Assembly: GCA_048938105.1 (NCBI GenBank)
Contig: JBHLMN010000022.1
Span: 32,001 to 96,000, forward strand
From: Promethearchaeota archaeon
Lineage (GTDB): Archaea > Asgardarchaeota > Heimdallarchaeia > Hodarchaeales > Hodarchaeaceae
Direction: 5' to 3'
Length of the DNA: 64,000 nucleotides
Shown piece by piece: positions 1 through 64,000 of the stretch (position 1 is its first letter; each line of letters opens with the position of its first letter). The notes under the pieces were generated by a model. The model made no database searches, was not told where the DNA came from, and saw nothing but the letters and a program-made list of their open reading frames with translations. The translations under genes and the position numbers were made by a program.

Positions 1-63
1 ACTCACTCCTCCTTGGTATTGTATAGGTGCTTATGACAATTCGATATAGTTCAAATCATCAAA
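1..63 (+). repeat. Array boundary site, copy 1 (left end cut by window; about 8 bp deleted in core)
   Basis: actcactcctccttggtattgtataggtgcttat matches the site consensus; right flank gacaattcgatatagttcaaatcatcaaa matches the right flank of the copy ending at 4527 (gaaaattcgagagagttcaaatcatcaaa). Confidence 0.8.
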
Positions 64-197
64 GCTTGTTACGCATTAAACGCCAATGAAGAAACAGTAC
101 CAATGTATCAACAAAGATCAAAGCTTTACTTATAGGAGGAGATTCTCAAAAAATTCATTCTTGATAGCTGAAATATGGTTCTTAAATCTAAGATTTT

Positions 198-1412
198 TTA
201 ATAAACCAACGAATCATGGGAGTAAGCAAAGCACACAGGATCTAAGTCTTGAGTAAACAGAAACAATTGCGTAACTCGACCCTCATATCCTGAAAGAGGC
301 CCATATCTTAGAGAATATTGAAACTTTCCTCTAAAAATCCAATAGAATGGAGCCGAGAAATAGTAAAAAGGGGTCTCATTCAATTTACCAACATAAAAGG
401 GTTTTGCTGGCTCCACAGAACCAAGTGAATAGAGTGATCCATTTTGCCACCAACCAAGGTAGTAAAAATCAACAAAGGATTTTTGTATAGTTGTATAAAG
501 AAAAGAAAAAGTTGAGATATTGATAGTAGATAAGGAATTATTAGTCTGAACAACTGAGACTCTCCACTCAAGAGTGACAGACCCCTGTTTTTGATCGTTT
601 GCGTGGGAGAGAAAATAGTTCAATGTGTCATTATTCATATAATTAGTGAGATTATCTCTAGCTTTCAGTGAATCATTACCAATAAAGTCCACGATTGAGC
701 TATTCTCGATATGTTTCAATACGAAAGATGCTTGTGAGTTGGAAGCTTCCCGAGTAATGGAAATTCGCCTATTAACTATATACTCATTCTTCAATAGATA
801 AGGTAAAACAAACCATCCAAACAATACTAGAATAACAAAAACAAAGCTCACCATTCGTATATCCTTCACACGTCTTTTAAACCGTTGAATATCAGATTGT
901 GACATCTTTTGTAGTATTTGACCAAGTCGAACACTTGTCATCAAAGCGATCAAGGGTTCTAGACAGAAAACTAAAACATCAAGAAAGACTACATTAATTT
1001 GGACTATATTTAAAAGGAGAATTGGGAAAGAGAAGACTATTCTAGGAAGAATTAACAGCCCGATGAGGAGAAATAACCACCAACACGTCACACCAACAAA
1101 AAGGTTTGCGATTAACCTATATAGGCTATTTTCTTGGATTGTTATATCCGAGAGAAGAATAGGAGGAAATAACGTGAAAAGAATAGCCCAAATTACCCCA
1201 GAAATAAAAAACCAGAGAAATAAACGTAAAGCTTGAATTTCTAAAGTCACTTTGACCTCTGAACCAAACGATCTCCACTTCTTACTCCACCCAATAGCAA
1301 TCAGTAAACAAAACAACAGAAGGAGAAATACTACAACTAATGGCTTGGGAATGGCCCATTCGAAATTTCCTCCAATAGTAGAAGTTATTGTGTACACACG
1401 AAGCATTTTCAT
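198..1412 (-). CDS. Hypothetical multi-pass membrane protein with C-terminal soluble domain
   Basis: 404-aa ORF; about 5 hydrophobic segments in the N-terminal half. Confidence 0.75.
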   Translation of the reverse strand: MKMLRVYTITSTIGGNFEWAIPKPLVVVFLLLLFCLLIAIGWSKKWRSFGSEVKVTLEIQALRLFLWFFISGVIWAILFTLFPPILLSDITIQENSLYRLIANLFVGVTCWWLFLLIGLLILPRIVFSFPILLLNIVQINVVFLDVLVFCLEPLIALMTSVRLGQILQKMSQSDIQRFKRRVKDIRMVSFVFVILVLFGWFVLPYLLKNEYIVNRRISITREASNSQASFVLKHIENSSIVDFIGNDSLKARDNLTNYMNNDTLNYFLSHANDQKQGSVTLEWRVSVVQTNNSLSTINISTFSFLYTTIQKSFVDFYYLGWWQNGSLYSLGSVEPAKPFYVGKLNETPFYYFSAPFYWIFRGKFQYSLRYGPLSGYEGRVTQLFLFTQDLDPVCFAYSHDSLVY

Positions 1413-1434: not shown

Positions 1435-1460
1435 TATTACTCATGAATTTCAATAGAATT
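1435..1460 (+). repeat. Array boundary site, copy 2 (right half only)
   Basis: tattactcatgaatttcaatagaatt resembles ttactcatgaatatttcaattgaaatt (copy ending 25880); sits exactly between two genes. Confidence 0.6.
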
Positions 1461-2652: not shown

Positions 2653-4354
2653 GAAGGGATCTGTCTATAAAAGCGGGATTCTCCTAGCTAAAGGTCAGTA
2701 CCAAGAGTATTTCAATCTGATTGATGAGATTATTGAAAAAGGAAATGAACAAGGAGATCGATTTGCTATTCTAGGAGCTCATTTTTTCAAGTATTTGGCT
2801 TACGATTTTCTCGTGATTTCAAGATGGCTGGGAATAGATATATTTGCCTCATCAGGATTTTTAGAAGAAATATCAAATTTAATTCAGTCATTTGAGCATT
2901 TTAGTGATGAACAAACGCAAGAATGGGTTTCATTACTTTATTGTCACCAATCTTGGATGGAATTACTATATTCTGATTTCAATCATAGTTTAAAATCTGT
3001 TAATAAAGCATTAACCATTGGAAAAAGGATCAAGTCAGCGATTGCAAGATGTATTGCATTAATACAATTGGGGGAACATTATTTCAGGACAGGGGACCTC
3101 TCTTCAGGATTTGAATATACACAACAAGCATTAACCTTGGCTAGCAAGGAAAATCTGAGATTGTTAACCTGTGCATTATATAGAAAACTTGGGAAAGAAT
3201 CAATTCGAAGAAGGGATCTGGTAAAGGCTTCAGAATATCTAAGTGAAGGAATGACTTTAAGCAATGAAATAGCTTATGAAAATATGGTGGAAAGTATCAC
3301 AAAAAGTTTTATATTTTTACATTTGATAAAAGGAGATTATGATAGTGCATTAGAATTTTTAAGGAAAAATTACCAGATAATAAGGGAGAAACATTGGGAT
3401 TGGGAACTAAGGATTATTTACAATCTATTTGGGGAAATTTATAGGTTGAAAGGCGATCTAAAAAACTCTCTAGACAATTATCAAAAAAGCTTGGTAATAG
3501 CGACTAAATTAGAGGATGCATATGGCCAAGCAAGTGCATATAGGCACATTGGAAAAGTCTATTATGATCAAGGAGCATTTCAAGAAGCTTTGGAGATGTT
3601 CCAAAAAGCCCTTCAGAGTTTCAGCCAATTAAAGGGCCCTAAACAATGGGGCTTCCTTAATCAAGCTAGTTGTGTATATGGATTAATCTTAGTAAATGTT
3701 GAATTAAATGACCTTGAACAAGCTAAAATGTATTTGAATAAACTAGAGGAAATTAATAAACTACCAATTAGTAAATTTTCAATTAGACCTAATATTAACC
3801 TGATCTACCAATTTTCAAAAGCTTTAATGCTAAAAGCAAGTAAAAGAATGAGAGATAAAGTAAAAGCCTTGGAAATATTTGAGGCAATGTCAAAAAAAGA
3901 ATCTATCGATCTAGATGACCTTGGTTTTGCATTATTCAATATATGTGACCTTTTACTTTATGAATATAGAACTTCTGGAGAAACAGAGATCTTTCAAGAG
4001 ATTAAAGAAATAACAGAGAGATTATATAATCTGGGAAAAGAAAAGGTCATTCCTCCATTAACAATTAGAAGCATGATAATACAAAGTAAACTTAGTTTAA
4101 TAGAGGGTCAATTAGAAGATGTTGAAAAGATATTAGAAAAAGCTAAAGAGATAGCAATAGAGTTTAATCTTGAGTATTTGCTTAATCTTGTTGAAAAAGA
4201 GCAAAACAATGTTAAAAGTGAATTAGAAAAATGGAAATCATTACTCAAACGAAATGCACCAGTCAATGAACGACTAGAAAAAGCAGACCTAGAAAATTAC
4301 GTCAAGAGTGCGTTACGAGTCGTGAGTACCTTTCATGAAGATATTCAAGGATGA
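2561..4354 (+). CDS. Tetratricopeptide-repeat (TPR) protein, Asgard-type
   Basis: TPR helices (e.g. YNLFGEIYRLKGDLKNSLDNYQKSL, YRHIGKVYYDQGAFQEALEMFQKAL); TTG start chosen from GGAGGT just upstream (ORF track starts 2525). Confidence 0.9.
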   Translation: MSNNSIKALFFEGEFNKALNLIDQLPVKDKLKGSVYKSGILLAKGQYQEYFNLIDEIIEKGNEQGDRFAILGAHFFKYLAYDFLVISRWLGIDIFASSGFLEEISNLIQSFEHFSDEQTQEWVSLLYCHQSWMELLYSDFNHSLKSVNKALTIGKRIKSAIARCIALIQLGEHYFRTGDLSSGFEYTQQALTLASKENLRLLTCALYRKLGKESIRRRDLVKASEYLSEGMTLSNEIAYENMVESITKSFIFLHLIKGDYDSALEFLRKNYQIIREKHWDWELRIIYNLFGEIYRLKGDLKNSLDNYQKSLVIATKLEDAYGQASAYRHIGKVYYDQGAFQEALEMFQKALQSFSQLKGPKQWGFLNQASCVYGLILVNVELNDLEQAKMYLNKLEEINKLPISKFSIRPNINLIYQFSKALMLKASKRMRDKVKALEIFEAMSKKESIDLDDLGFALFNICDLLLYEYRTSGETEIFQEIKEITERLYNLGKEKVIPPLTIRSMIIQSKLSLIEGQLEDVEKILEKAKEIAIEFNLEYLLNLVEKEQNNVKSELEKWKSLLKRNAPVNERLEKADLENYVKSALRVVSTFHEDIQG

Positions 4355-4368
4355 ATCATTGTTTAATC

Positions 4369-4527
4369 AAGACATTAATACTGGAACGATCAACAATGAG
4401 ATGAATGTGTGCGATGTGGAAAGAGGGGGTTGTTTTACCCATGTGAGGGGTGTCTCCAAAGGAAAAATCGAGTTGATGAAATCATTCCTCCTAGATATTC
4501 CTCAGATGCTTATTGACTCATGAAAAT
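4369..4527 (+). repeat. ATPase 5' remnant plus boundary site, copy 3
   Basis: Aligns to ~51362-51519; ends gcttattgactcatgaaaat. Confidence 0.9.
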
Positions 4528-4558: not shown

Positions 4559-7237
4559 TTAATTAGTTATGAGACGCCGACGGATAATCATCATTAATAC
4601 AGCAACGAAAGACAAAATAATTCCTGCATTAGAAATCTGAAAGAAAGGTACTGTATTAGATGTATCAGTTTGGGTAGAGGAGGTGGTTAAGCTAATTTTC
4701 AAACTAGTGGTGGATGGTATTTCCGGAACAATTAATCTAATGGGAGAGACTAAAGGATATTGATCCTGATTGTTTATTGGGCCAGAAATTATATACGGAA
4801 GGTCTACTATCCCATCCTGATTTGTATCTGGTTCCACCCAATCAGCCCAATAATTATGACTAAAGATGTTATTAAGTCCTGCATCATATGCTTGCGTAGA
4901 ATCATTAAGATTATTTTGCCAGAAGTCATTGTACCTAATCTGTGTATTCATAACATTGACTTCTAAATATAATCCGTAATACCCGTTATTAGTAAAGAGA
5001 TTCTGATTGATAATTGTACCATTTGTCGCTTGCAAATGAATTCCATATTGAGCGTTCGCTGAAACGTTATTCATTCTAATAATGGTTGATTCAGTTGAAT
5101 CAAGGAAGATCCCAGAACTGTGAGTATTAGTAATATTGTTTCCTGAAATAATGCATGTTTTTGACGATTTCAGAGTAATAGCGCTAAAATACACCTGTGA
5201 AACAGAGTTATTAATGGTATGAATATTATAAGACGAATCAATAGTAATTCCATAAGCATGAGTTTGAAAAATACTGTTCTTAAAAGTAATATTTGCACAC
5301 CGAATAAGCTTCATTCCATTAAACGACTTACAGATCATAGTATTCGTGATTATTGCGTTTGACACATTATCAAAATATAATGTAAATGTTTCAGGCTGAG
5401 GTAGAAGCCCGCTTGGATCAGGATAAACTATCAGATAGCAGTTGTTCATGAGAAAGTGAAGATCGGTATTTTTAATTGTGAATAGATCTTTGGATGGATG
5501 AGTAATATTCAGATTGTCAATAAGATAGGGATTCTGTACAGTTCCATCCCCTTGCCATCCCTTATTTTGTGCGGTAGCGATAAAATCTTTATTTCCATTA
5601 ATAAAAATAGGTGGATGAGCCCTAGGAAGATAGATCAAATTTTTGACTATAAACTCAGTAGTAAGTCCTTCTGGACACATAGCGACTATTTTTAACTGAT
5701 AATCCGTGCTTTCAGGCAAATCTGGATTGTTCCACACAATACTGGTATTATTGAGGCCCTCTGCGAAATTGGTCCACGTGCTGCCAGAGTCAGGAGAGAA
5801 CGAAACCAAGTAGGACAAATTATTGTGCCAGTAGTCAATGCTTGGTCTCCAGGATACTGTAATTGGTGTGGTCCCATAAAGCGTTGTTCCATGCTTAGGA
5901 GATAGTGAAACAGGTTTTGAGATATAATGAATAAGAACAGGGTTATTCGGTGTGGTTTGTGGATAATAATCTTTTGTACCTGGGTTGCCATATAATGAAT
6001 TTCCAATGTTTTTGGGTATATCTACAATACCATCAGAGTTATTATCAGGACTGATTCGGTTATTCCAATAGTTATAGGCGTAGTAGCTATTATTACGGCC
6101 GTCCTCGCCAGCTTGAGGATACGAATACTTATATCCATTGTCAATGAAATCATTGAACATAATTGTATTTAAATTTGAACCAGAGTAATAAACAGAGATC
6201 CCTTTCCACTTATTATTGATAATAGAATTATTTAGAAAAATATTGTTTCCTGCATGGCATTGTATACCTGTGTCACTACCATCATGAATAGTATTGTTAA
6301 CGATGTAGTTAGAACCAGAATTTATCAGAGAAATCCCAAATCCATTTCGGGACAAGATGTTACCTGATAGAGTGCAATTCTTGGAGCAGAATAAGCAAAT
6401 ACCTATCCTACCATCAGAAAGAACATTTTTTTGTATATTCACGTGAGAACTAAAGGCTACTAATATATTAACGCATTCACTTGAGATATTTTGTCTAATA
6501 ATTGTTATGGTTGAACAATTTACAATGATCACTTGCCCAGCATTAGCAGGTACTGTCCCACCTGCTTGATTCTGCCAATATACTAAGGGTCTTCCATTTA
6601 CTGTATTGTTAGCAACTAATGTTTGAACGTACGTCTTTAAAGAGTCGGCATGAATATAAAGACCCTTATCCATCCTATTTGCTATCAAGCTGTTATTACT
6701 AGAATCCCTTGTAAACCAAATACTTCTTAACCTATTATGAAAAAATGAGTTGTTTACTAAGAAGTTCTCTCGGGAACGAGATAAATGGATACCATCCCAA
6801 TCGTTATAAGATAAGATATTATTAGCCAGATATCCATAATATACATTATCTAAAGCAATCCCTTGTCGTCCTCTGGTCAAAAGACAATTACTTATATTAA
6901 AATAGACTCTAGTATTTTCTATTGAGATTAATTGTTTATTAATGGGCCCAGTTATATTCAGGCCTGAAATGATGTATGGATTAGTTCTTGTCCCAATCCC
7001 AGGCCACCTCTCTGCAGCTGCCTGAGTGGCAAAATCAGCATCCCCATCAATAGAAATAGGATTGTGGGAAACATAATACTGTGTGATTCTTCCTTGAATA
7101 ATTAAAGAGTTTCGTATGAAAGAGGTGGAACTCTTATCACTAGAAGGGATTGAGATGTTTTCAACGATAAATACTTGGCAAGTGAAACATAATAACAGTA
7201 GAGTTATAATAACAGAATTCCCAACCTTTCTTGACAT
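4559..7237 (-). CDS. Secreted NosD/CASH parallel beta-helix surface protein with Ig-like module and C-terminal TM anchor
   Basis: Signal peptide; HNPISIDGD..WPGIGT..NPYII module; N-x-I-x-x-N repeats; NYW..PD.N.DGIVD motif twice; Thr/Ser linker, TM helix and RRR tail. Confidence 0.9.
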   Translation of the reverse strand: MSRKVGNSVIITLLLLCFTCQVFIVENISIPSSDKSSTSFIRNSLIIQGRITQYYVSHNPISIDGDADFATQAAAERWPGIGTRTNPYIISGLNITGPINKQLISIENTRVYFNISNCLLTRGRQGIALDNVYYGYLANNILSYNDWDGIHLSRSRENFLVNNSFFHNRLRSIWFTRDSSNNSLIANRMDKGLYIHADSLKTYVQTLVANNTVNGRPLVYWQNQAGGTVPANAGQVIIVNCSTITIIRQNISSECVNILVAFSSHVNIQKNVLSDGRIGICLFCSKNCTLSGNILSRNGFGISLINSGSNYIVNNTIHDGSDTGIQCHAGNNIFLNNSIINNKWKGISVYYSGSNLNTIMFNDFIDNGYKYSYPQAGEDGRNNSYYAYNYWNNRISPDNNSDGIVDIPKNIGNSLYGNPGTKDYYPQTTPNNPVLIHYISKPVSLSPKHGTTLYGTTPITVSWRPSIDYWHNNLSYLVSFSPDSGSTWTNFAEGLNNTSIVWNNPDLPESTDYQLKIVAMCPEGLTTEFIVKNLIYLPRAHPPIFINGNKDFIATAQNKGWQGDGTVQNPYLIDNLNITHPSKDLFTIKNTDLHFLMNNCYLIVYPDPSGLLPQPETFTLYFDNVSNAIITNTMICKSFNGMKLIRCANITFKNSIFQTHAYGITIDSSYNIHTINNSVSQVYFSAITLKSSKTCIISGNNITNTHSSGIFLDSTESTIIRMNNVSANAQYGIHLQATNGTIINQNLFTNNGYYGLYLEVNVMNTQIRYNDFWQNNLNDSTQAYDAGLNNIFSHNYWADWVEPDTNQDGIVDLPYIISGPINNQDQYPLVSPIRLIVPEIPSTTSLKISLTTSSTQTDTSNTVPFFQISNAGIILSFVAVLMMIIRRRLITN

Positions 7238-7753
7238 AGGGGTTCAGGATTACGAGGAATAAAATCTTCTTAAAGCTTACTAATGGTCTTAATACAATAC
7301 CTTATAAAAAATCGAAATAAAGGTTTCAGACTCTTTCGGAGGATAAGCAATTATCATGATTAGATGATTTTTTCAAATTCTCATTCTCTTGAACTACTAG
7401 CACGTTTGGTAACCTTATTTGATTCCATGGGGACTCCCAATTTTGGATTAATGAATTCAATCGTCCCTGAAGTTTTTGGCGTCGTTGATTGTATTCTGAT
7501 TCAAAGTAACTCTCAGTAATTGCAAATGATTTTAGAGAAAAATCGAGATGAAGAGCCACAGCTCCTAGTTATTTCTCGGAAGACTTCTTGAAAAACTAGA
7601 TAATATTCTTAACACATTTTTTAAAACGAGAGTCATTTCAGTTTCATGGAGGTTGTCAATATTAAGCATTAACTCAATAAAAGCATTATTTTTCGAAGGA
7701 GATTTCAATAAAGCGTTTGATTCAATAGACCAATTGCCAGTCAAAGACAAATT
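7199..7753 (+). repeat. ~555-bp direct repeat copy B; includes truncated TPR 5' end
   Basis: Partner of 2097-2652; TPR start TTG is TTA here and homology stops at ...gtcaaagacaaatt. Confidence 0.95.
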
Positions 7754-9979: not shown

Positions 9980-12900
9980 ATGACAATGAAAAAATATCTG
10001 AAAATATCTTTAATAGCTTTAGGACTTTTGTTTACTTTATCAAATGTTATTAACTATTCTTTGGCTGATCAAGCAATTAACACTAAGAATCACTTAGAGA
10101 CGATGGAAAGCATTACTAATTCTATTGAGAATGGTGATTTCGAATTAGGGACAACAGATGGTTGGGGATTAAAGTATTTAAAGGCGGGAGAAACAAATCT
10201 ATACGAGGTTTCAACTAATAATCCCCATACTGGAACCTATTCTTACTATATGTATGCCATTGCGTACAATCCCACTTACCGGGGATGTGTTATAGAAATT
10301 GGGCAAAATATCACTGTGAATGCTATAAGTAGGTTCAACCTCACAGGAAATGTATACGTCGATCAATGCACCTGTTACACTCCCTATAGTTCATGGGCTG
10401 GAATATATGTTGTATTCTATAATAGTGATCAGGATGAGCTAGGTCGGGTGTACTATCGTTTTGCAGAAAACCGAGAGTGGGGATCTCATGAATATGAGAT
10501 AGAACTATATAACCAATTGGACTCTTGGTTAGAATTTAACCGAAACATCGCCCAAGATTTTGTTAATGAAATCGGAGGGGATAGTAGTGAAATCACGCAA
10601 ATCGAACTGGTATTTAAGGTAATAGCGAGTGATGGAGATCAATCCGGGGATCGAGGGTATTGTGAGGCCTATTTTGATGATTGGAACCTAGAACACCATC
10701 CTGTTGCTAATACTATTGCAAATGGCGATTTCGAATCAGGAGCAACATTTGGTTGGGGATTAAAGTATTTAAAGGCGGGAGAAACAAATCAATACGAGGT
10801 TTCAACCAATAATCCCCATACTGGGACCTATTCATATTATATGTATGCCGTGGCGTATAATCCTACTTACCGGGGATGCTATATAGAATTTGGGCAAAAT
10901 ATCACTGTGAATGCAATTAGCAAGTTCAACCTCACAGGTTATGTATATGTTGATCAATGTTCAAGCGCTAACACGTATCCTTCATGGGTGGGTATCTATA
11001 TTGTTTTTTACAATAACACTCAGAATGAGCTTGGTCGAGTGTACTATCAATTTGCAAGTGATCATCAATATACTGAATTTGATCATGAGATCAACTTATA
11101 CAATCAATTGGACACCTGGCTAAAGTTTGATAGAAATATTACTCAAGATTTTGTCGATGAAATTGGTGGGGATATTAGCGAAGTTTCGCAAATCGAGCTG
11201 GTATTCGACACCCATGCGAGTGATGGAGATCAATCTGGGGATCGGGGATATTGTGAGGCCTATTTTGATGATTGGAACCTTGAACGCCATCCTGTTGCTA
11301 ATACTATTGCAAATGGCGATTTTGAATCAGGGACAACACTTGGTTGGGGATTAAAGTATTTAAAGGCGGGAGAAACAAATCAATACGAGGTTTCAACCAA
11401 TAATCCCCATACTGGGACCTATTCATATTATATGTATGCCGTGGCGTATAATCCTACTTACCGGGGATGCTATATAGAATTTGGGCAAAATATCACTGTG
11501 AATGCAATTAGCAAGTTCAACCTCACAGGTTATGTATATGTTGATCAATGTTCAAGCGCTAACACGTATCCTTCATGGGTGGGTATCTATATTGTTTTTT
11601 ACAATAACACTCAGAATGAGCTTGGTCGAGTGTACTATCAATTTGCAAGTGATCATCAATATACTGAATTTGATCATGAGATCAACTTATACAATCAATT
11701 GGACACCTGGCTAAAGTTTGATAGAAATATTACTCAAGATTTTGTCGATGAAATTGGTGGGGATATTAGCGAAGTTTCGCAAATCGAGCTGGTATTCGAC
11801 ACCCATGCGAGTGATGGAGATCAATCTGGGGATCGGGGATATTGTGAGGCCTATTTCGATGATTGGAGCTTGAAACCAAACTCAATATTCATCAATAACA
11901 ATGCTGATTTTGCTAATTTAGGCTTTCCTGGCACTGGTGTGCTAGAAGACCCATATTTGATAGAGAATTACACCATTACTAACTCGGAGGCCATCTTGAT
12001 AGAAATTCATAATACTACGGCATATTTTCGAATTAAAAACAATCTTCTTGACGGTTTAGAAAGAAATTATAATGGCATCTATCTTCATAACGTCACACAC
12101 GGAACGATCGTCAACAATACTATTCATAGCTGTAAGCAGGGTGTTACAGCAGATTACTATTCCCTTAATAACACCATTACTAACAATTTCATTTCCAACT
12201 GTGCATCATATGCTATTTCTATTCAGGGTGCCTCAGATCTCAATAATGTGACACATAACACTGTTTTTAACAGTGATAGTAGTGGTATTTGGTTGGAATC
12301 AGCTTTCAACACTACACTTCTAAACAATACTATTTCTACCAGCGGTTACGACGGTATTGAGCTATTAGCCTCTGATTATAACGACATTTTTAACAATACG
12401 ATAATAAATAGTACTCGTTATGGCATTAGTCTTATTGGTGGTTCGGCTTGGAATCTCATAGAGTGGAATGATTTCATCAACAACAAAGGTCAAACCTCTC
12501 AGGCTCTTGATGATGTTTCCTTATCTAATACAACTTTCAATTACAACTATTGGGGTGATTGGACAAGCCCCGACAGTGAACCTAATGGTATTGTTGACCA
12601 TCCATACTTGATCGATGGTAATGCAAATAACAACGACCCCTATCCATTAACATCTCCAAACAATCCCATCACAGATCATTCCCTCTCTATCCCTATAGTT
12701 TTATATCCTAACGGTGGCGAAACAATCAGTGGTACTATTGAGATCGAGTGGTCGGCAGCAAGCGATACATGGGGACATCTGATTACTTATACGGTTTATT
12801 ATTCAGCTGATGGTGGAACAACTTGGAACGAATTGGCCTCTGGTTTAACGACTACCTCTTATGACTGGGATACTACCACAGTAGCCGATGGAACCGATTA

Positions 12901-13423: not shown

Positions 13424-13484
13424 TGAATCAACCCCTTTTTTGTATCGGTGTTTAATTACTCATGAAAATCCGAATTGAAATCAG
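13424..13484 (+). repeat. Array boundary site, copy 4 (degenerate left part)
   Basis: tgtatcggtgtttaattactcatgaaaatccgaattgaaatcag; left variant resembles copy 1, right flank resembles copies ending 25880 and 59315. Confidence 0.75.
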
Positions 13485-37560: not shown

Positions 37561-37580
37561 GCTTATTTACTCATGAAAAT
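37559..37580 (+). repeat. Array boundary site, copy 8
   Basis: atgcttatttactcatgaaaat, exact core. Confidence 0.92.
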
Positions 37581-48067: not shown

Positions 48068-48124
48068 GACCAGAAAAATTTCTTATCTTGGGTCATCCTT
48101 GGGACAGATAAATACCATTTGTAA
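47978..48124 (+). pseudogene. Orphan signal-peptide ORF, truncated paralog of the 51603 gene
   Basis: MRYSKVVLILMLFICLVVCGLSQELPFTPED vs MKWSTTVLILMLFIWLLVCGKSQELSFTPEN. Confidence 0.75.
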
Positions 48125-48238
48125 GGGTGGGGTGATTGTTCGTCCAGCATCCATGTTTATATGCCACGTAAGGTGAAACTTTTATAAGAGAAAATGACAA
48201 CAATAACAGGATAATTGCATTCATGAGGGAAAGATACA

Positions 48239-49042: not shown

Positions 49043-49278
49043 TAATAAAAAAATATAAATAATATGAAAAGGATGTATGAGGATAATTAAAGGAGGAAAA
49101 AGCAAGGCCGTTAATGTGTATTGTTTACTTACACTGGATAAAGACAGTGAACGAAAAGTGAAGGCGAAAAAGCATCATATTAAACCTTATTCCCAATGTT
49201 GATCATCCTACAAGAATATCAGCTAGGGGAGCACAAGCCAGAGGCACCATTAATAAACTAATTACTCCTCAAGGAGAA

Positions 49279-51495: not shown

Positions 51496-51519
51496 GAGTG
51501 CTTATTTACTCATGAAAAT
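51471..51519 (+). other. Array boundary site, copy 10 (reference copy; putative recombination site)
   Basis: CATGAGT(51493-51499)-GCTTATTT-ACTCATG(51508-51514); overlaps the first ATG of the ATPase ORF. Confidence 0.85.
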
Positions 51520-51602
51520 GATTTCATCGTGAGATAAACCTTTTTTAAGGCCCCAAGAGCTAAGACCAATAGTCTGGGATTTGGATCAAAAGGGAAACCA
51601 CA

Positions 51603-54600
51603 TTGAAATGGAGTACCACAGTTCTCATACTAATGCTTTTCATTTGGCTATTGGTCTGTGGAAAAAGCCAAGAGCTTTCATTCACCCCTGAAAATCAACT
51701 CTCTAATGGTCAGGCTGCTGATCCTCGGTTTGGTAATTCCAAAATACATCAATACACTCCCCATGATCCCATTATTATTACAAGAAATAGTGATTTTGCC
51801 TCCCAAGGATATCCTGGTTCAGGAACTATTGATGATCCATATTGGATTAAGGGATTTAATATTACTTCTCCTGATGGTGATTTAATTGCCATTAGTGATA
51901 CTACTGCATATTTCTGTATTGCTAACAACTATCTCAATGGATTATCCACAGCGTGGGGAGGTATCGTCCTGAACAACGTTATTAACGGAATAATCGAAGA
52001 CAATCTCGTGTTAAACCATGAATATTTAGGAATAGTGACTTATTCCTCATCCAATATTGTTATAGTTAACAATATTGCTTTCAATAATGGTTTGAACGGA
52101 ATTCGACTTGAAATGGAATCAAATAATAACCTACTTGAAAACAATACTGTTCTGGATAACAAAGCAGATGGGATTTGGATGGGAATTTCATGTAACTATA
52201 ATAGGATTATCAATAATACGGTCTATGCTAACATTGGGATTGGAATCTATTTTGGTTTGGAAGATTTTTCATATACTGGGTGTAGTGATAGCTTCATTTT
52301 CCGTAATTTTATTTACAATAACAGCTATGGCATAAAATTCGAGTCTTCAGATAATAACATAATCATTGGTAATAAAATTTCCAATAATACTCATCATGCC
52401 ATTTATCTTGACGCTACGTCTGATAGTAACAGAATAGCAATTAATAATTTTTTTAACAATAATCTAGGGGAGCAGTCTCAAGCTTATGACGATGGAGCTG
52501 CCAATGTAATTTTTGCAAATCATTGGGACGACTGGATCACACCAGATGACGATGGAGATGGGATTGTCGACGCCCCCTACAATATCAGTGGTCTATCAAC
52601 AACACAAGATGGATTTGCACATGTATCTGCTATCATACCGCACAGCGACATTTCTATTGATGGAGATGCGATGTTTCATGCTACTGCGGCTGCCGAAAAT
52701 TGGCCTGGGAACGGAACCTTGTCAAATCCCTATATCATTGAGAGACTTATCATGATTGACATAAGGAATCGGACATTGATTGAAATTGCCAACACAAGCA
52801 TCCATTTTCAAATAAGAGACAGCTTACCTTGGGGAGGATCTATCGTTTTCTCTAAGGTTTCACATGGAATAATTCACAATAATACTATGGTTCGGAGTGG
52901 GATAGCCATTTATTCCTCCAGAAATTGTACCGTGTCAGATAATTTAGTAACTGGTGACTCAGGAGACGGAATACACCTCCTAAACTCCAATCACACATCC
53001 ATTCTTAGTAATCAAGTGTTCAATAATCAAGGTCAGGGAATTTCCATTGACACCTCTTGGGATAGCACCATCTCTGGAAATACTGTAAACAACAACAACG
53101 AAGACGGAATTCGCTTTAAGGATTCTACAGCCATTATTATTTCTAACAACACGGTTTCCCAAAACGGGGTTGGAATTTATCTTGGGAGTTCTAATAATAG
53201 CACTATTTCTAACAATATAGTCACCGACAACAAACACAATGGAATTTTTCTTGAGGATTCATCTAATAGCGCTATTTCCAACAATACAATCACTGGTTCT
53301 CCGTGGAGTGGAATTCGGCTATTAAATTCTAGTGAAAGTACCTTGGGAAATAATTCGATCACCGAATGTAGTGATGGAATTTCGGTTGATGAGTCGGAAA
53401 CACTCACCCTGACCAATAATATGGTCACTAGCAACAGTGCGGATGGAATTGACCTTTTTTATTCAGGGAATAGCATCCTATCGGGGAATATGGTCTCTAA
53501 TAATGGTGGTAATGGATTTAATATTTTTGATTCAGAGACCAGTGTTCTGACTGCCAATACAGCCTCTAATAACAATGACCTTGGAATTTTTCTTAGAGAT
53601 TCTACAGACATTACCCTTTCCAACAATACAATCAAGAGCAACAGCGGTGGAATTTTTCTTTGGTATTCTGGGAATAACACACTTGTGAGCAACACTATCA
53701 CAAACAATGGAAACATAGGAATAATCCTTGCTACTTCCAAAAACAATACGATTTTAGATAATATTTTGGTAAATAATGATCTTTTCATCGGGCATGCCGA
53801 AATTAATTGGGATATGCATGTGACATCTCCTACTCTAACTGATTATTTTCAAGCTGATGTAATGAACAATTCTATAAACGGGAAACCGCTCGTATATTGG
53901 CAACATGCTGCAGGTGGAACAATACCAGCTGGAGCTGCCCAGGTCATTCTGGTGAACTGTACGGCAGTAACAGTGGCGAATCAAGATCTTTCAAATGTCT
54001 TGTTTGGTTTACAAACGATTTCCAGCTCATGCGTGTCCATCTTAAACAATGTCATAGTTAATACTAGTATATCTGGAATCTATCTTCTAGATTCTATTAA
54101 TAGCACGATTGCTGATAATAAAATTACACACAACTATGGACTTGGAATTTTTCTTCAGGATTCTAATTCTAGCGCTATTTCCAACAATACGGTCACCAAC
54201 AACAGACACAATGGAATTTTTCTTGAGGATTCTAACAATAGCAATAGTTCAAAGAATGTTGTCACCGACAATGATGGTCATGGATTTTATCTTGGGAATT
54301 CTAAGAATTGTATGATTTCATCAAACATTATTTCTTACAATCGTGGAAAGGGAGTCGAAGTTAATGATTCTACCAACATCATCATTTCCAGCAATACCAT
54401 CTCTAGTAACGACAATGGGATTCATCTTGAGAATTCATGCAATAGCGTTATCTCTGACAATACAATAAACTACAATGAGGAAGACGGAATTCTATTTAGG
54501 GCCTCGGAGAATAGCACTATTTCCAACAATACGGTATCCAATAACATGAAAGGAATTATTCTTGGGGCCTCTGGGAATTGTGTTATTTATAACAATACAA

Positions 54601-55190
54601 TCACTGACCATGATTTTCAGGGAATCGAAATTCATCGTTCTACAGCTATTACTATTTCCAACAATATAGTCTCCAACAACGACAACAATGGAATTATCCT
54701 TGAGAATTCATCCAATAGCGTTATTTCTGACAATACAATAAACTACAATAGCGGAAACGGAATTGTATTTTGGTACGATGAAATCTTAATTTCTAAAAAT
54801 AACTTAATTTCTCATAATACAGTGTCTAACAATAGTGGATATGGTATTTTTATAGGTGGATCATCTAAGTTTTGCAATGTATCGTGGAACATTTTTAATG
54901 GGAATAATCGTGAGGGAACATCTCAAGCTAAAGACGATGGAAGAAATAATACCTTTGAACATAATTACTGGGACGATTGGACGGAACCCGACACGGACGG
55001 GGATGGGGTTGTTGATACACCTTATGATATTGATGGTGATGCAGAGAATCAAGATATGTACCCACGCGTTTCTCCAAATCCTGTTTCCACCCCATTTTTG
55101 AGCGAAAATATCCTCATGGGGTTAGTTTTTCTCGTACTCATCCTTCCTGTCCTGGGGATCTTAATTCGCAAGCAGAAGAGAAATTTTTGA
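51603..55190 (+). CDS. Large NosD/CASH beta-helix surface protein with TM anchor
   Basis: Signal peptide, two HxxIxI/GxGTxxNPY modules, many beta-helix repeats, TPFL-TM-RKQKR tail. Confidence 0.92.
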   Translation: MKWSTTVLILMLFIWLLVCGKSQELSFTPENQLSNGQAADPRFGNSKIHQYTPHDPIIITRNSDFASQGYPGSGTIDDPYWIKGFNITSPDGDLIAISDTTAYFCIANNYLNGLSTAWGGIVLNNVINGIIEDNLVLNHEYLGIVTYSSSNIVIVNNIAFNNGLNGIRLEMESNNNLLENNTVLDNKADGIWMGISCNYNRIINNTVYANIGIGIYFGLEDFSYTGCSDSFIFRNFIYNNSYGIKFESSDNNIIIGNKISNNTHHAIYLDATSDSNRIAINNFFNNNLGEQSQAYDDGAANVIFANHWDDWITPDDDGDGIVDAPYNISGLSTTQDGFAHVSAIIPHSDISIDGDAMFHATAAAENWPGNGTLSNPYIIERLIMIDIRNRTLIEIANTSIHFQIRDSLPWGGSIVFSKVSHGIIHNNTMVRSGIAIYSSRNCTVSDNLVTGDSGDGIHLLNSNHTSILSNQVFNNQGQGISIDTSWDSTISGNTVNNNNEDGIRFKDSTAIIISNNTVSQNGVGIYLGSSNNSTISNNIVTDNKHNGIFLEDSSNSAISNNTITGSPWSGIRLLNSSESTLGNNSITECSDGISVDESETLTLTNNMVTSNSADGIDLFYSGNSILSGNMVSNNGGNGFNIFDSETSVLTANTASNNNDLGIFLRDSTDITLSNNTIKSNSGGIFLWYSGNNTLVSNTITNNGNIGIILATSKNNTILDNILVNNDLFIGHAEINWDMHVTSPTLTDYFQADVMNNSINGKPLVYWQHAAGGTIPAGAAQVILVNCTAVTVANQDLSNVLFGLQTISSSCVSILNNVIVNTSISGIYLLDSINSTIADNKITHNYGLGIFLQDSNSSAISNNTVTNNRHNGIFLEDSNNSNSSKNVVTDNDGHGFYLGNSKNCMISSNIISYNRGKGVEVNDSTNIIISSNTISSNDNGIHLENSCNSVISDNTINYNEEDGILFRASENSTISNNTVSNNMKGIILGASGNCVIYNNTITDHDFQGIEIHRSTAITISNNIVSNNDNNGIILENSSNSVISDNTINYNSGNGIVFWYDEILISKNNLISHNTVSNNSGYGIFIGGSSKFCNVSWNIFNGNNREGTSQAKDDGRNNTFEHNYWDDWTEPDTDGDGVVDTPYDIDGDAENQDMYPRVSPNPVSTPFLSENILMGLVFLVLILPVLGILIRKQKRNF

Positions 55191-55326
55191 GGTAAAATAT
55201 ACGACATAAAAAGCATTTAAGCCTCAAAAAGCTACAACCCGTAATTTGGGATTAGGTCCAAAGGTGATTCTCTGGGGAAAAAAAAAAAGGTATTTCTCAA
55301 AAAAAGGGATGAGTATGTGATATGCA

Positions 55327-55375
55327 GACTCACTCCTCCTAGGTATTGAAAAAGCGCTTATTTACTCATGAAAAT
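55327..55375 (+). repeat. Array boundary site, copy 11
   Basis: gactcactcctcctaggtattgaaaaagcgcttatttactcatgaaaat. Confidence 0.93.
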
Positions 55376-55409
55376 TCGCAGGAAGTGTAAACAGTGAATA
55401 AGCTATATG

Positions 55410-57110
55410 TCATTCTTTTCTTTTAATAATTCCTTTTTGTAGTATTAGAGCGACAGTTATTAGTACAGTGATAATCAATCCGCCTATAACATTACCAGGA
55501 AAACCATTGGCATTTGTTCTAGTACTAGGAGTACTATTGACACTTGTACTAGTAGATTCCACCAAGGTTGTGGTAATAGTTGTATAACCAAAATTAATGA
55601 TTGTGAATGTATTATCAGATGTATCAGTATTCCAGACCCCATCAGCACAGCTCGCGTTTACTTTGATCAAATAGTTGGTGCCATTAGGTACTGTGGTGAT
55701 ATCCCATATATACATGGTTCCAGTAAAACCTGACTCCAAGGTAACCCACGATGTCCCCCCATCAGCGGAAAAAGAGACAGAATACGTGATTGAATGAGCC
55801 CAGGAATCAACACCATCTGTCCAAAAAATCGCGATTTCGTCTGAAAATGTCTCTTCACCATTAGGATGCGATACTGTTAGACCGAATATAAAGTGATTTT
55901 GAGGTAGATTCGAGGACGTGAGCGGATAGATATCTTGGTTATTCACTGAACCAGCAATAGGATAGGATTCATCTACAATACCATCCGTATCATTATCTGG
56001 GGTTGTCCAGTCACTCCAATAGTTAAACACGAAAATATTATTCGAACCATTATCAACTGCTTGAGATCCCGTATCAATGTTTCCAGAGAACTCATTGAAT
56101 AGAACTCTGTTATTAACAGAGCCATCTCGAAGTGAAACTCCATACCTATAGTTGTTGGTGAGAGTATTGTTGGATATCATACTGTTCTCAGAGTATTTAA
56201 AGCTAATTCCGTCCCCATTGTTGTCGTTAATACTATTGTCAGAGAGAATACAATTCTCAGAAGTACGAAGGGAAACTCCAGATTGATTGTTATTGTTGAT
56301 AGTATTGCCAGATAAAGTGTTATTAAATGAGGCAGTAAGACGAATTCCGTATTTAGTATTATTGGTAACGACATTGTCAGAGATGATACTATCCTCAGAG
56401 GAGCTGAGCCAAATTCCATTTCCACTGTTGTCGGTGACAACATTGTTGGTTAAAGTAGAATTCCCAGAAGTGATGAGACGAATTCCAAATCTACTGCTGT
56501 TGACAACAATATTATTGAACAGAGTAATACTTCTAGAGTAAAGAATCTCAATTCCTCCCAAACAATTGTTGGTAATTATATTATTAGATAATTGTCCATT
56601 AGTCACATTTTCTAGATAAATTCCAAATTCTCCTTGGTTTATTATACAGTTACTGATTCGAAAATATAAATTAGTATCCAGAATAGTTATCATGTTATAA
56701 TCATAGGAGCCAGAAATATTAAAATCATCAATGAGAATCGGAGACGAGGGGGTTCCATTACCAGGCCAATTATTCTTACTTGCTTGGGCAATGAAAAGAG
56801 AATCCCCCTCTATATAGATATAAGGATATTGTTTGGTTTCATTTATCACGTCTGCTTCGAATTTATCACGCAATTCCTGATTGAAACTCAAGATCTCTTG
56901 AGAAGAATCACTAAGGATCCAAGGACATGCTTCTATATCATCCTGGGTTTGACCAGGAAATTGAGATGCTAGATCATTTGAATAAAGGCATTTGGATTGA
57001 ACCATTATAGGACTGACCAAAAGGCTAAAAATACTCATGAATAGTACAAAATACAAAATGAATAGTTTTAACAAGGAGTATATAATTTGAATTTTATGAA
57101 ACTTCATCAT
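55410..57110 (-). CDS. NosD beta-helix surface protein with Ig-like module and PGNVIGGL-TM anchor (paralog of 22100-24055)
   Basis: Long near-identical blocks with the 22100 protein, fewer beta-helix turns. Confidence 0.9.
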   Translation of the reverse strand: MMKFHKIQIIYSLLKLFILYFVLFMSIFSLLVSPIMVQSKCLYSNDLASQFPGQTQDDIEACPWILSDSSQEILSFNQELRDKFEADVINETKQYPYIYIEGDSLFIAQASKNNWPGNGTPSSPILIDDFNISGSYDYNMITILDTNLYFRISNCIINQGEFGIYLENVTNGQLSNNIITNNCLGGIEILYSRSITLFNNIVVNSSRFGIRLITSGNSTLTNNVVTDNSGNGIWLSSSEDSIISDNVVTNNTKYGIRLTASFNNTLSGNTINNNNQSGVSLRTSENCILSDNSINDNNGDGISFKYSENSMISNNTLTNNYRYGVSLRDGSVNNRVLFNEFSGNIDTGSQAVDNGSNNIFVFNYWSDWTTPDNDTDGIVDESYPIAGSVNNQDIYPLTSSNLPQNHFIFGLTVSHPNGEETFSDEIAIFWTDGVDSWAHSITYSVSFSADGGTSWVTLESGFTGTMYIWDITTVPNGTNYLIKVNASCADGVWNTDTSDNTFTIINFGYTTITTTLVESTSTSVNSTPSTRTNANGFPGNVIGGLIITVLITVALILQKGIIKRKE

Positions 57111-57316
57111 TCCCCTTCAACTTGTTACTCCGACTTTCTTGATAAATAGGAAGATAGGAAAAACTTCCCATTATTATTTTAATTCTGATCAAACACATTA
57201 CTTTGAGTTTTATTATAACAACCCTAATGAATACTGTCTAAGGATAATCATTAAATGATAATTAAAAAGAGCTCCTTGGTTCTAGTCATTTTTTTTTTCT
57301 TTATGACTCTTTAGTC

Positions 57317-57395
57317 CTATTAGCTTTCACTTATACTTTACGAGACCAATTTAGGACAAAAACCTGAACAAGAATACAAGATGGGTGTATTCGGA
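57317..57395 (+). repeat. 79-bp repeat (partner 33707-33785)
   Basis: Gap-free alignment with 33707-33785. Confidence 0.85.
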
Positions 57396-57397
57396 TT

Positions 57398-57549
57398 GAA
57401 ATTTACAGGTCGCCTGTGTTTCGTAAAACCTCAATCGATAAATCATGCAAAATTGTTTCGATAGTTTTTCTGTCAGTTGGTGTAGACTCAAAATACAGAA
57501 CTCTCAACTCATCCGCTAATTCAGGCCCTCGTCAGTTGTTACAGTTTCC
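57398..57549 (-). pseudogene. Small-GTPase 3' remnant
   Basis: acctcaatcgataaatcatg...gatagtttttctgtcagt...gttgttacagtttcc colinear with ~35562-35714. Confidence 0.75.
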
Positions 57550-57575
57550 CTTACATGAATTATTATTAAGACGGA

Positions 57576-58922
57576 TTAAATCCTTAAGTTGTAATGGAGG
57601 GTGTCTTGTAAATCTTGGATTTCTGCAATTGGAACTTGATTCACATGTGTCAGGGGATTATCGGTTAGAATAACATATTTTAAAGCGGGACAGGAGTCTA
57701 GCGGGGAGAGATCAATGGTTTCCAACGAATTCCTATTAAAGAATAACTCCCATAACGACGGATGATTCCTGAACGGGGATAGATCAATGGAGGTAATAGC
57801 ATTATCACCCAACCTGAGTTCACGAAATTTAGGACAGTGCTGCAAGGGGGAAAGGTCTATGGTCTGAAAACGATTGTGGCTCAAGTCGAGATCTTTGAAT
57901 TCAGGTAACTGTGCCAACGGGGAAAGGTCAAGAGCGGTTAATTCATTGTCTTTCAATGAAATTTCTTCTAGATGGTCACAATTTCTGAGGGGGGAGAGGT
58001 CAAGACTTTGAAGTCCGTTATTAAATATAGTTATATCTTCTAGACTGTTTTTCGGAGGCATGGGGGGTAACACAACGGATGTCAAGGTTCTTAAAGAAAG
58101 AATTCCAATATATCTTAGGACAGGGAGGTGAGCTAATGGGGTCAAGTCAAGAGTCTGAAAATCGGTTCCTTCCGATAATTCGAAGTGGGTCAATTTCTGA
58201 CAATATCGAATCAGGTCAAAACAGACCATATCAATGATGTTCAAGTTTTCAGGGATCTTGAATTCGGTGATATCTCGTGTTTCCTTGAGTGGTTCCAAGG
58301 AGATGTACGGAAAGTCAAGGAATACATTCTTAATGAATGTTTCTTCAATGATCCGTGTAGGTGGGAAGAATCTTTCCATGAACAGAGTACACGGGACATA
58401 AGCATTCCCTGTTTCTTCATCTCGAATGACCCGATAATCAGTAAATGTTGAGATAAGGCGCGCCTGATCAATAATCTCAGATAATGTCAGGTCAATCTTC
58501 TCTGGTATTTCGGGATAAATAATCAATTGACTCTTTCGCCCAAAGACATACCCGCTATATTTTATTTCTAATTCTTCTGGATCAAAGATTGTTTCTGAGA
58601 TTGGCATCCAAACAGGTCTTTCTAGAACTTCGTTGATAGAGATCCGTTCATAGTTTTTCTTCATCTTTTCTTTACTAATCGTGGTTAAGGGACAAAGATA
58701 AAATACTAGATCCTGGTCACGGTATTCTAACACGGTATACAGATAATTCGTGGGATCGCCGAGATTCACGTTGAGTTCTTGGGCGACTAATGTGGCAATG
58801 ATAGAATCATCTTTGTCATACCGCAATTCACGCCTTGTTTGAGCAATCTTCTCGCTTATTTCCGCCTTCGAGAGTTGTTTCTGTTCGTGGATCTTCCTGA
58901 TTACCTGTTCCTTACTCTGCAT
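57576..58922 (-). CDS. LRR protein with N-terminal helical domain resembling the archaeal RPA/DUF2240 N-terminus
   Basis: Repeated N.L..LDLSPL..C..L; N-terminus EQVIRKIHEQKQLSKAEISEKI...IATLVAQELNVNL. Confidence 0.85.
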   Translation of the reverse strand: MQSKEQVIRKIHEQKQLSKAEISEKIAQTRRELRYDKDDSIIATLVAQELNVNLGDPTNYLYTVLEYRDQDLVFYLCPLTTISKEKMKKNYERISINEVLERPVWMPISETIFDPEELEIKYSGYVFGRKSQLIIYPEIPEKIDLTLSEIIDQARLISTFTDYRVIRDEETGNAYVPCTLFMERFFPPTRIIEETFIKNVFLDFPYISLEPLKETRDITEFKIPENLNIIDMVCFDLIRYCQKLTHFELSEGTDFQTLDLTPLAHLPVLRYIGILSLRTLTSVVLPPMPPKNSLEDITIFNNGLQSLDLSPLRNCDHLEEISLKDNELTALDLSPLAQLPEFKDLDLSHNRFQTIDLSPLQHCPKFRELRLGDNAITSIDLSPFRNHPSLWELFFNRNSLETIDLSPLDSCPALKYVILTDNPLTHVNQVPIAEIQDLQDTLHYNLRI

Positions 58923-59189
58923 CCCGAGCCCTCATGCTACGCGTTTTCCACCCATACCTGCTTGAGTTGAATATATTTTTGATCATTCTGATGATTGATC
59001 TCAACTTCTCTTACCTCCATAAATACCCTTTGTTTTTATGTCTGCTATGGTGATTTGTCTCTATCACGAATCAGTTCAGTCATCCAATAGTATAAGGGGC
59101 CAAAGAACATCCCAAAAAGTCCGACCACGAAAAGTACAGGGGAGACTAAGGTAAGGTCAACTCCATAAACGAATTCCCAATAAGATCGC

Positions 59190-59315
59190 GAGGAATGTGT
59201 TCGAAGTGGAAAGAGGGAGTCGTTTTACTCATGGGAGGGGTCTCTCCAAGGAAAATTCTACGATGTAGCTTACTCCTCCTAGGTATTGCAGAGGTTCTTA
59301 TTTACTCCTGAAAAT
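59190..59315 (+). repeat. ATPase 5' remnant plus boundary site, copy 12
   Basis: gaggaatgtgttcgaagtggaaagaggg exact to the ATPase; ends cttatttactcctgaaaat. Confidence 0.92.
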
Positions 59316-63510: not shown

Positions 63511-63980
63511 TTATTGAAATGGATATAATAGTCTAGTATTTGTAGCATAATTTATAAACTTTTTACCATAAATTATCAATATACGATGTTCTGTAAACCT
63601 AAAATGCTTCTAGTTTAATTTTCCTATTGAAGATTGGCATTATCAATTTCTTCTTTCACGGTATTCACTCCCATAGCTTAAATTTTAATGAATAGTATAA
63701 AAATGTCAATAGAAAGGTTTAACACGATTGTTCTCTGCTCAAAAGCTTGAAATATTAATTTATTTAAAAGAAATTCCAATTAAAGAAGTTTGAAACTGTA
63801 TTCAAAAATTACTTTCTTATTGCCTAAGTTCCTGAAGAGAAAATAGTAGTAACCTCTGTCCCCCAATATCATATAAACCCAATCACCACGTACTTCGGAT
63901 CTCCAATCAAATGCGTGGGTGAAGAAAAAACGAAATCATTGAGGAAAGTGGCAACATTGAATGACCTATCTTCTGATTAA

Positions 63981-64000
63981 AGTGATTATTTACTCATGAA
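63981..64000 (+). repeat. Array boundary site, copy 13 (cut by window end)
   Basis: agtgattatttactcatgaa. Confidence 0.7.

Follow-up and report, generated by a model that had tools for sequence, protein, structure and literature searches.

A gene-boundary sequence upstream of a VirB4/HerA-like ATPase recurs as a recombination joint in a 92-kb surface-protein island of a Hodarchaeales archaeon

Introduction

How does one short sequence come to stand, always in the same orientation, at the boundaries of many unrelated gene units? The question is raised by contig C37 of G000, a Hodarchaeales genome bin of 5.85 Mb in 65 contigs. A stretch of 64,000 nucleotides of this contig (C37:32001-96000, referred to here as the window) was described in an earlier note as a candidate integron-like cassette array, in which units of different cargo are separated by copies of one site tied to a HerA/VirB4-like ATPase gene; a pile-up of one integrative element, with a decaying ATPase/GTPase backbone and retained cargo, was offered as the alternative. 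Of the archaea known so far, Hodarchaeales count among the nearest relatives of eukaryotes, and to our knowledge little is known of gene gain and reshuffling in their large genomes. We therefore asked what the repeated site is, what lies on either side of it, and which kind of recombination best accounts for the array.

Results

Copy number, polarity and extent of the repeat

The core of the site was defined as the 20-mer GCTTATTTACTCATGAAAAT, and the window was scanned for it at up to 3 mismatches. Nine matches were found, every one on the plus strand, against a chance expectation of 0.01; they end at 4527, 13469, 25881, 35554, 37580, 47894, 51519, 55375 and 59315. A tenth copy (63984-64003, 1 mismatch) crosses the window end, and three further sites are degenerate (1-34, 1437-1448 and 33438-33457), which together account for all 13 sites listed in the earlier note. 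When the whole 5.85-Mb genome was searched by nhmmer with a 55-nt profile, 14 copies were identified at E<0.01, all on the plus strand of C37 between positions 5914 and 97834, and no match was found outside that contig. Genome-wide scatter in both orientations, which the earlier note had named as a finding that would count against it, was thus looked for and is not what the genome holds. Weaker remnants at C37:7741 and at window positions 1437, 33438 and 57389 bring the total to about 18.

The array spans 92 kb with at least 14 co-oriented copies. It extends past the window on both sides, as had been supposed, but both of its ends lie inside the 108-kb contig. Every copy is intergenic, and the units between copies measure 1.4-12.4 kb and differ in gene content, in agreement with the placement and cargo first described. 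At 11 unit borders the 20-nt core is present as a direct repeat with at most 2 mismatches, all co-oriented; the longest exact repeat common to the core regions is 62 nt.

The repeated site and the upstream end of the ATPase gene

The core forms part of a 48-nt motif that consists of the 20-nt near-invariant core, 8 variable nucleotides and an 18-20-nt block containing AGGAGG (read on the minus strand, ATTTTCATGAGTAAATAAGC-N8-AATACCTAGGAGGAGTGAG). The only intact ATPase gene of the array is preceded by one such motif: its ATG lies at 51435, the core ends 64 nt upstream of it and the whole motif 36 nt upstream. The encoded protein matches Pfam DUF87 (DUF87/HerA domain) at 2e-17, and its Walker A sequence G-M-T-G-E-G-K (residues 339-345) is invariant in 40 homologues, with the next residue, Ser346, at least 90% conserved. 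The best match to its structure model (predicted local distance difference test, pLDDT, 84) is full-length TrwK/VirB4 (E 2e-19), followed by DndH-C and HerA, and the modelled fold places the protein in the VirB4/HerA-FtsK superfamily. A look-up of the ATPase by identity returned a contig of the source run as the sole match.

The association of core and ATPase extends beyond this genome. One copy of the core lies directly upstream of the ATPase orthologue in the congeners G009, G011, G008, G014 and G017 and on the metagenomic contig L140; contig L139 carries one core upstream of the ATPase and one relic copy, and contig L141 carries a degenerate core upstream of the ATPase and two relic copies. 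In G000, the five congeners, L139 and L140, and with the degenerate core in L141, the distance from core to ATG is 20-70 nt. Upstream of the ATPase, TAAATAAG is followed by 8 variable nucleotides and then by AATAMCTAGGAGGAG. Among five species compared, the core is nearly invariant, the following 8 nt vary and the flanks are unalignable; four of these species carry the ATPase, and in them the second block is conserved. In G009 and G011 the sequence homologous to G000 starts exactly with the outermost base of the core (window 51519 and 51518, respectively) and stops at the ATPase stop codon in G009 (49283) and two bases earlier in G011. No core was found upstream of distant ATPase homologues of 52-65% identity, and the site is therefore limited to a genus-level clade. 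These alignments identify the repeated site with the upstream end of the VirB4/HerA-like ATPase gene, and the tie to this gene proposed in the earlier note stands.

The motif reads best as the probable core promoter of the ATPase: its position, the TAAATAAG element and the conserved downstream block suggest an archaeal layout of TATA box, proximal element and start site. The upstream regions of tRNA genes were considered as a promoter consensus and set aside, because 14 tRNAs are too few, and their upstream regions too A/T-rich, to calibrate the TATA reading.

Other members of the ATPase family were seen in different settings. A second intact paralogue of 70% identity in G000 (C18:127214-129358) has no upstream core; its closest relatives, in G008 and G017 (compared over the C-terminal segment), do carry it, so that the motif seems to have been lost or replaced at C18. 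In the complete genome of G009 (L004:10118-14487) the ATPase gene and the start of a 724-aa NosD/beta-helix gene share 4 nt; this overlap suggests that the two form one operon and that the VirB4-like ATPase is functionally linked to surface proteins. In the distant Hodarchaeales loci L140, L147 and L149 the ATPase homologue lies near ribosomal-protein or RNA-polymerase genes, and on this account the family looks chromosomal rather than plasmid-borne.

Gene relics beside the core copies

On the other side of the motif, a Ras-family GTPase gene lies immediately upstream both in G000 and in its closest relative, G003; the stop codon of the intact GTPase falls inside the core. Contig C180 of G003 holds a GTPase orthologue (90%), then a core, then an ATPase relic, and the adjoining right flank is syntenic with G000. 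The order GTPase-core-ATPase is probably ancestral, judging from this arrangement. In G000 one end of the array is occupied by the intact GTPase, displaced GTPase tails occur within the array, and only one ATPase and one GTPase of this junction type are still intact. Of the two things that the earlier note proposed to look for at the array ends, the intact GTPase gene was found, but C37 encodes no tyrosine or serine recombinase.

Many of the other copies adjoin remnants of the same two genes, as the earlier note had proposed in its unit plan: stubs of the ATPase 5' or 3' end and of the GTPase 3' end, whose lengths vary between 0 and about 250 nt, the ATPase stubs being broken by stops, deletions or sudden loss of homology. 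No GTPase 5' stub was found. The motif copies, relics and related features of the window are as follows (window coordinates; UTR, untranslated region).

1-34, plus strand: degenerate motif copy with intact second block and an internal core deletion; sister of the 4508 copy, with the same right-flank class
1437-1448, plus strand: degenerate core remnant TTACTCATGAAT, then the start of a GTPase-tail flank
4341-4480, minus strand: ATPase 5' relic with the 5'UTR and about 28-48 codons, terminated by a stop
4481-4527, plus strand: copy of the 48-nt motif, core 4508-4527 with 1 mismatch
13450-13469, plus strand: core copy with 2 mismatches; left flank unrelated, right flank of class R-C
25773-25881, plus strand: ATPase 5' relic and motif copy, core 25862-25881, with a CATGAGT-N8-ACTCATG palindrome
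33438-33628, plus strand: degenerate core, 14/20 (33438-33457), then Ras-GTPase 3' relic, residues about 120-167 in minus-strand reading
35425-35554, plus strand: ATPase 5' relic (about 11 codons) and motif copy, core 35535-35554
35555-35822, minus strand: Ras-GTPase 3' relic, residues about 88-171, with its stop 14 nt before the core
37338-37560, minus strand: ATPase 3' relic covering residues about 647-718, carrying an in-frame stop as well as a deletion and fused directly to the core
37561-37683, plus strand: exact core copy (37561-37580) and GTPase-tail relic
42627-42696, minus strand: isolated relic of the ATPase 3' end, last 22 codons, 89% nucleotide identity
47622-47894, plus strand: ATPase 5' relic (63 homologous codons) and exact motif copy, core 47875-47894
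47895-48072, plus strand: R-B flank stub, with the leader and initial codons of a NosD-type surface gene on the plus strand
49279-51435, minus strand: VirB4/HerA-like ATPase, 718 aa, ATG at 51435
51472-51519, minus strand: resident 48-nt motif, proposed ATPase core promoter
51520-55327, plus strand: core-to-core unit with R-B leader, 1195-aa NosD/beta-helix surface gene and L2 tail flank
55328-55375, plus strand: exact motif copy
57389-57612, minus strand: Ras-GTPase 3' relic, core lost; break at the right edge of the core
59186-59315, plus strand: ATPase 5' relic (about 14 codons) and motif copy, core 59296-59315 with 2 mismatches
63984-64000, plus strand: core copy with 1 mismatch, over the window end; R-B leader and 525-aa NosD gene beyond

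When the ATPase relics were compared with the resident gene, the ratio of nonsynonymous to synonymous substitution rates (dN/dS) was 0.34 for the N-terminal relic (47622, 63 codons) and 0.08 and 0.07 for the C-terminal relics at 37338-37560 and 42627-42696, respectively, with synonymous divergence (dS) up to 1.5. The ATPase relic at the 37561 junction is about equally distant from all orthologues in the genus. These codon-level values indicate that the ATPase relics diverged under purifying selection; low dN/dS, high dS and equal distance to the orthologues together point to diverged, formerly functional copies as their origin, either old paralogues or imports from relatives.

Reassortment of flanks and duplication from core to core

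The sequences adjoining the cores fall into a small set of classes. To the left of most cores lies L1, the 5'UTR of the ATPase with 11 to about 83 codons; at 37338-37560 the ATPase 3' end takes its place, and a second 3' end is isolated at 42627-42696. To the right of several cores lies R-A, GTPase 3' tails of 6 to about 85 codons. R-B (3 occurrences) is the leader of plus-strand NosD genes, L2 (2 occurrences) is the region downstream of plus-strand NosD genes, and R-C is a further right-flank class. The classes are found in the combinations L1/R-A, L1/R-B, L1/R-C, L2/R-C, L2/R-A and X/R-B.

A unit of the form core-R-B-NosD-L2-core is present twice, at 51520-55327 and at window-equivalent positions 64004-65786. 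Its homology (51497-51877 with 63981-64361, and 54639-55377 with 65149-65836) begins 3 nt beyond one core and ends 2 nt beyond the other. Two motifs, at 47847-47894 and 55328-55375, agree at 47 of 48 positions, and their flanks are unrelated on both sides. Because the flanks have been reassorted and a unit has been duplicated from core to core with its ends at the outer core edges, the cores are real recombination joints.

Several independent breakpoints cluster within a few nucleotides of the core edges, on the left at 13450, 33457, 37561 and 63984, and on the right at 4508, in the R-B class, at 55356 and at 57389. They are not perfectly fixed: in the copies at -7014 and at window 1-34 and in those of L141, the break falls within the core itself. 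For the 37561 junction, a microhomology deletion at ATTCAAT is an alternative explanation.

Search for a recombinase and for known types of site

No tyrosine or serine recombinase, TnpB, Cas1 or DDE transposase was found on the 108 kb of C37 (PF00589, PF00239, PF07282, PF01867 and PF01609), so that the absence of a recombinase noted for the window holds for the whole contig. Elsewhere in the genome, PF00589 identified three tyrosine recombinases, at C14:174285, C56:201681 and C45:377, and there are 23 TnpB-type and four resolvase-like matches, two of the latter with internal stops. Scans of the window open reading frames (ORFs) and of most flanking contig ORFs against Pfam, NCBIfam and PHROGs yielded no integrase, and scans of the ORFs without a family by PADLOC, NCBIfam and PHROGs yielded no recombinase or phage function. 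No recombinase lies next to any core in nine related loci.

The site itself resembles none of the familiar types. Single-strand folds of seven copies gave no common hairpin, with z-scores from +0.5 to -3.1 and differing structures; Rfam returned no match for the site, and the window contains no tRNA. Spacings of 1.4-12.4 kb filled with genes are not those of a CRISPR (clustered regularly interspaced short palindromic repeat) array. These checks agree with the earlier note in rejecting an attC, a CRISPR repeat and a tRNA end as the identity of the site. Tested as an integron or as a cluster of attC sites lacking an integron integrase (CALIN), the array showed neither an IntI beside it nor an attC fold. 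Inverted arms, CATGAGT-GCTTATTT-ACTCATG (7-8-7), occur only in the copies at 51500 and 25862 and in G003:C110; the left arm differs in every other copy and species compared, and the arm-spacer-arm geometry of a tyrosine-recombinase core site is not conserved among the copies. No full dif/Xer-like site is present on C37, where single arms occur at background density. Outside the array, on the minus strand at C37:104132 (window-equivalent 72132), there is a good dif-like arm with spacer, CCAACGTTATACGACAT, which is 92% identical to a site on contig C204 of G003 (L007:19700-19735).

The locus in relatives

In a genus-wide search with the 20-mer at up to 2 mismatches, 0-3 copies per genome were found. 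Small co-oriented sets of cores with ATPase stubs occur in G003, G012 and G014, on the JGI contig L139 and on the ENA contig L141; the process is thus recurrent, with examples in independent assemblies, and G000 is its extreme case. Identical gene order in relatives, another finding that the earlier note had said would speak against it, was also sought: the order around the ATPase is not conserved between species. Genes of the G000 array occur in other contexts in G003, for example the radical-SAM gene and the block 45410-46753, and the G000/G003 breakpoints of such blocks lie at gene ends without cores. Module shuffling in the genus is therefore not confined to the core.

Exact scans for the core in wider collections were set aside as chance matches or added little. 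Among metagenome contigs, 118 loci were found, none with further homology to C37, and were rejected as chance matches; among species-representative genomes, only G009 (CP070695.1) was found, along with five chance bacterial matches. A GC-rich 160-nt repeat that occurs three times on contig C52 of G000 at about 3.6-kb spacing (482357-482516, 486056-486215 and 489549-489707), and also in G003 (L143:5598-5757), was considered as part of the array and found to be unrelated.

Read-level evidence

Read evidence was taken from Logan k=31 contigs. Those of the likely source run match each unit without differences, at depths of 11-19, and break at every core, so the order of the units cannot be confirmed from them; with a longest exact repeat of 62 nt in the core regions, ordinary large-k or long-read assembly can resolve that order. 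No excision or circle junction was seen among these k=31 contigs, which break at every core. Two apparent joints, a back-joint from 59257 to 55318 and the X4 joint from 47790 to 59235, were considered as evidence of circles or deletions and rejected, as they link paralogous positions; most simply, the contigs derive from other L1 copies and were aligned here as chimeras (the copy at 35535, for example, has the sequence ...CCAAGGAAGATTTTGATATGAGGACTCACTCC), and the back-joint is explained by a paralogous copy beyond the stretch examined. At 52571-53740, 55421 and 56608, contigs of the likely source run carry sequence absent from the bin, which represents allelic NosD variants of the same population, and the unit 51522-55003 has a depth of 12.4 against about 17.

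Cargo of the units

The units are rich in surface proteins (NosD/beta-helix, leucine-rich repeat (LRR) and Kelch proteins and one Heimdall-CTERM protein) and also hold an FtsX/ABC transporter set, a PIN toxin gene preceded by a small ORF, an NYN-LOTUS nuclease, a radical-SAM enzyme, an aldo-keto reductase, a tetratricopeptide repeat (TPR) protein and several proteins without a family match. At least 12 NosD paralogues are encoded on C37; the genes have leader, signal-peptide region and C-terminal tail in common and differ in their interiors.

Several cargo genes contain repeats of their own. A 1057-aa NosD/DUF3047 gene carries three 591-nt tandem repeats (10034-11874), the last two of which share 517 nt exactly, suggesting recent intragenic expansion. 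A 557-nt direct repeat of 93% identity (2096-2652 and 7198-7753) lies upstream of the TPR gene and of an 892-aa NosD gene. The 501-aa repeat protein at 33844-35349 has five internal repeats of about 155 nt, and its end matches the Heimdall-CTERM sorting signal weakly, below threshold (NF045529, E 0.007). The PIN toxin gene (20970-21458) is 89% identical to a copy on contig C204 of G003 (L007:9254-9705), with homology that stops at the stop codon; in G003 a solo core lies about 330 nt downstream of the PIN gene, and in G000 the nearest core is 4.4 kb away.

Discussion

The reading that we favour, to which we would give about an even chance of being right, is host recombination on short portable homology at the GTPase-promoter-ATPase junction. 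This junction would have been reused in G000 as a recombination joint: crossovers in the short motif and the adjoining stubs, between direct repeats, would duplicate, insert and exchange modules, some of which probably came from diverged relatives, and the fragments at the joints would be the remains of once complete, selectively maintained copies of the ATPase and GTPase genes. We infer that the acting enzyme is the general recombination machinery of the host rather than a dedicated recombinase.

Several observations weigh against this. Breakpoints within a few nucleotides of both core edges are what a site-specific enzyme would give, and the homology shared at several joints, only 20-48 nt, is short for efficient general recombination. 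Divergence among the cores of G000 is about 6%, compared with about 19% in the adjoining L1 stubs, and with cores so conserved in the relics the solo copies could still be functional sites; functional orthologues show the same ratio of core to flank divergence, however, so function of the solo cores is not proven by it. The promoter role of the motif, moreover, is deduced from its position and sequence.

Edge clustering and strict polarity (14 of 14 copies one way) make a dedicated site-specific system a serious rival, possible if still well short of probable, in which the core would be an att-type identity segment, the recombinase would be encoded elsewhere or be unrecognisable, and the array would be a capture platform or an element pile-up. 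Both edges of the 20-nt core are sharp and have been used repeatedly, flank classes reassort freely, a unit is duplicated from core to core, and the intact GTPase at the array end with displaced tails inside recalls tandem islands at the 3' end of a gene; three copies have 7-bp inverted arms around an 8-bp spacer, and three tyrosine recombinases are encoded elsewhere in the genome. Yet most copies, and other species, lack those arms, the 108-kb contig carries no recombinase and none lies beside cores in the nine related loci, no fold is conserved, stubs vary from 0 to about 250 nt with some copies broken inside the core, modules of G000 and G003 also break away from cores, and the core is near-invariant as a single copy upstream of the ATPase where there is no array. 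Since no dedicated recombinase was found, an integron-like system is possible rather than shown: the earlier note described the layout well, but the platform it proposed is one possible mechanism, and its alternative of a pile-up with a decaying ATPase/GTPase backbone and kept cargo fits the anatomy better. It is doubtful, in our estimate, that the core is a cis-acting site of gene capture or shuffling not yet described in Asgard archaea, working through an unrecognised recombinase or through DNA-transfer machinery associated with the VirB4-like ATPase, with an att- or oriT-like role at the promoter of that gene.

Ancient tandem duplication of promoter-ATPase-NosD operons with random loss of the ATPase, leaving the cores as leftover promoters, would agree with the translational coupling of ATPase and NosD in G009, the 12 or more NosD paralogues on the contig, purifying selection on the relics before truncation and the decay of some cores; we consider it unlikely, as random deletion does not explain relics that are nearly all centred on the junction (ATPase 5' and GTPase 3' stubs), and homology that ends at core edges and reassorted flanks are likewise left unexplained. 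Nor would those stubs and flanks follow if the copies were working promoters or operators, possibly bidirectional, selected to co-regulate surface-protein units. Better conservation of the core than of the flanks in solo copies, the three copies that adjoin the R-B leader of plus-strand NosD genes and the minus-strand genes downstream of the solo copies at 37561 (NosD), 59296 (LRR) and 63984 (942 aa) could be understood in this way, but most solo copies face a convergent gene or a dead stub, with nothing to drive, and several are degenerate, which makes regulation a distinctly unlikely account of the array. We regard an assembly collage, in which strain variants of one locus were concatenated through the shared motif, as very improbable. 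The k=31 contigs do break at every core, the depth of the units varies between 11 and 19, variant ends that the bin lacks are present on contigs of the likely source run, and the estimated contamination of the bin is 7%; against this, exact repeats at the cores do not exceed 62 nt, depth is fairly even, a tangled graph usually yields fragments rather than a co-oriented chain of 92 kb, and independent assemblies of relatives hold similar small arrays.

The array has counterparts among known systems, each of which it matches in part. Integrons reportedly occur in archaea. Like integrons and CALINs, the G000 array is a co-oriented series of one site between unrelated gene units, and as in CALINs no integrase lies next to it; it differs in having no IntI, no attC-like foldable site and no attI/Pc organisation, in that its site is a probable promoter region with gene stubs on both sides, and in that its units hold 1-10 genes in either orientation and reach 12 kb. 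Tandem genomic islands, such as archaeal SSV/pTN3-type integrated elements and the tycheposons of Prochlorococcus, build up when elements integrate repeatedly at the 3' end of one gene for a tRNA or a protein. They share with the array one intact target gene (here the GTPase) at one end, displaced 3' tails with a direct repeat of the target at unit borders, and a decayed backbone with kept cargo, whereas here no unit has an integrase, stub lengths are irregular, stubs of the downstream gene (the ATPase) are also repeated, and the repeat is the probable promoter of the neighbouring gene. In the Xer-dependent dif modules (pdif modules) of Acinetobacter plasmids, short sites likewise bound gene modules without a recombinase of their own, but the core here lacks the 11-6-11 geometry and dif-like arms are at background density. 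In surface-protein variation loci with conserved 5' and 3' ends, such as sap of Campylobacter fetus and vlp/vsa of Mycoplasma, genes have common ends and differing interiors, as the NosD genes do, with allelic interior variants in the source sample; the G000 array has no invertible promoter and no single expression site, and its repeated element belongs to the ATPase gene, not to the surface genes.

The locus offers one concrete route for gene gain and reshuffling in Hodarchaeales, in which a short conserved gene-boundary sequence serves as a reusable joint and a 92-kb surface-protein island, still polymorphic in the source population, has been built around it. Were a dedicated enzyme at work, the array would represent a new system of gene capture, different from integrons; were host recombination alone at work, promoter-sized portable homology would be enough to produce integron-like arrays. 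Under either reading, the array provides defined junction sequences for tests on the source sediment.

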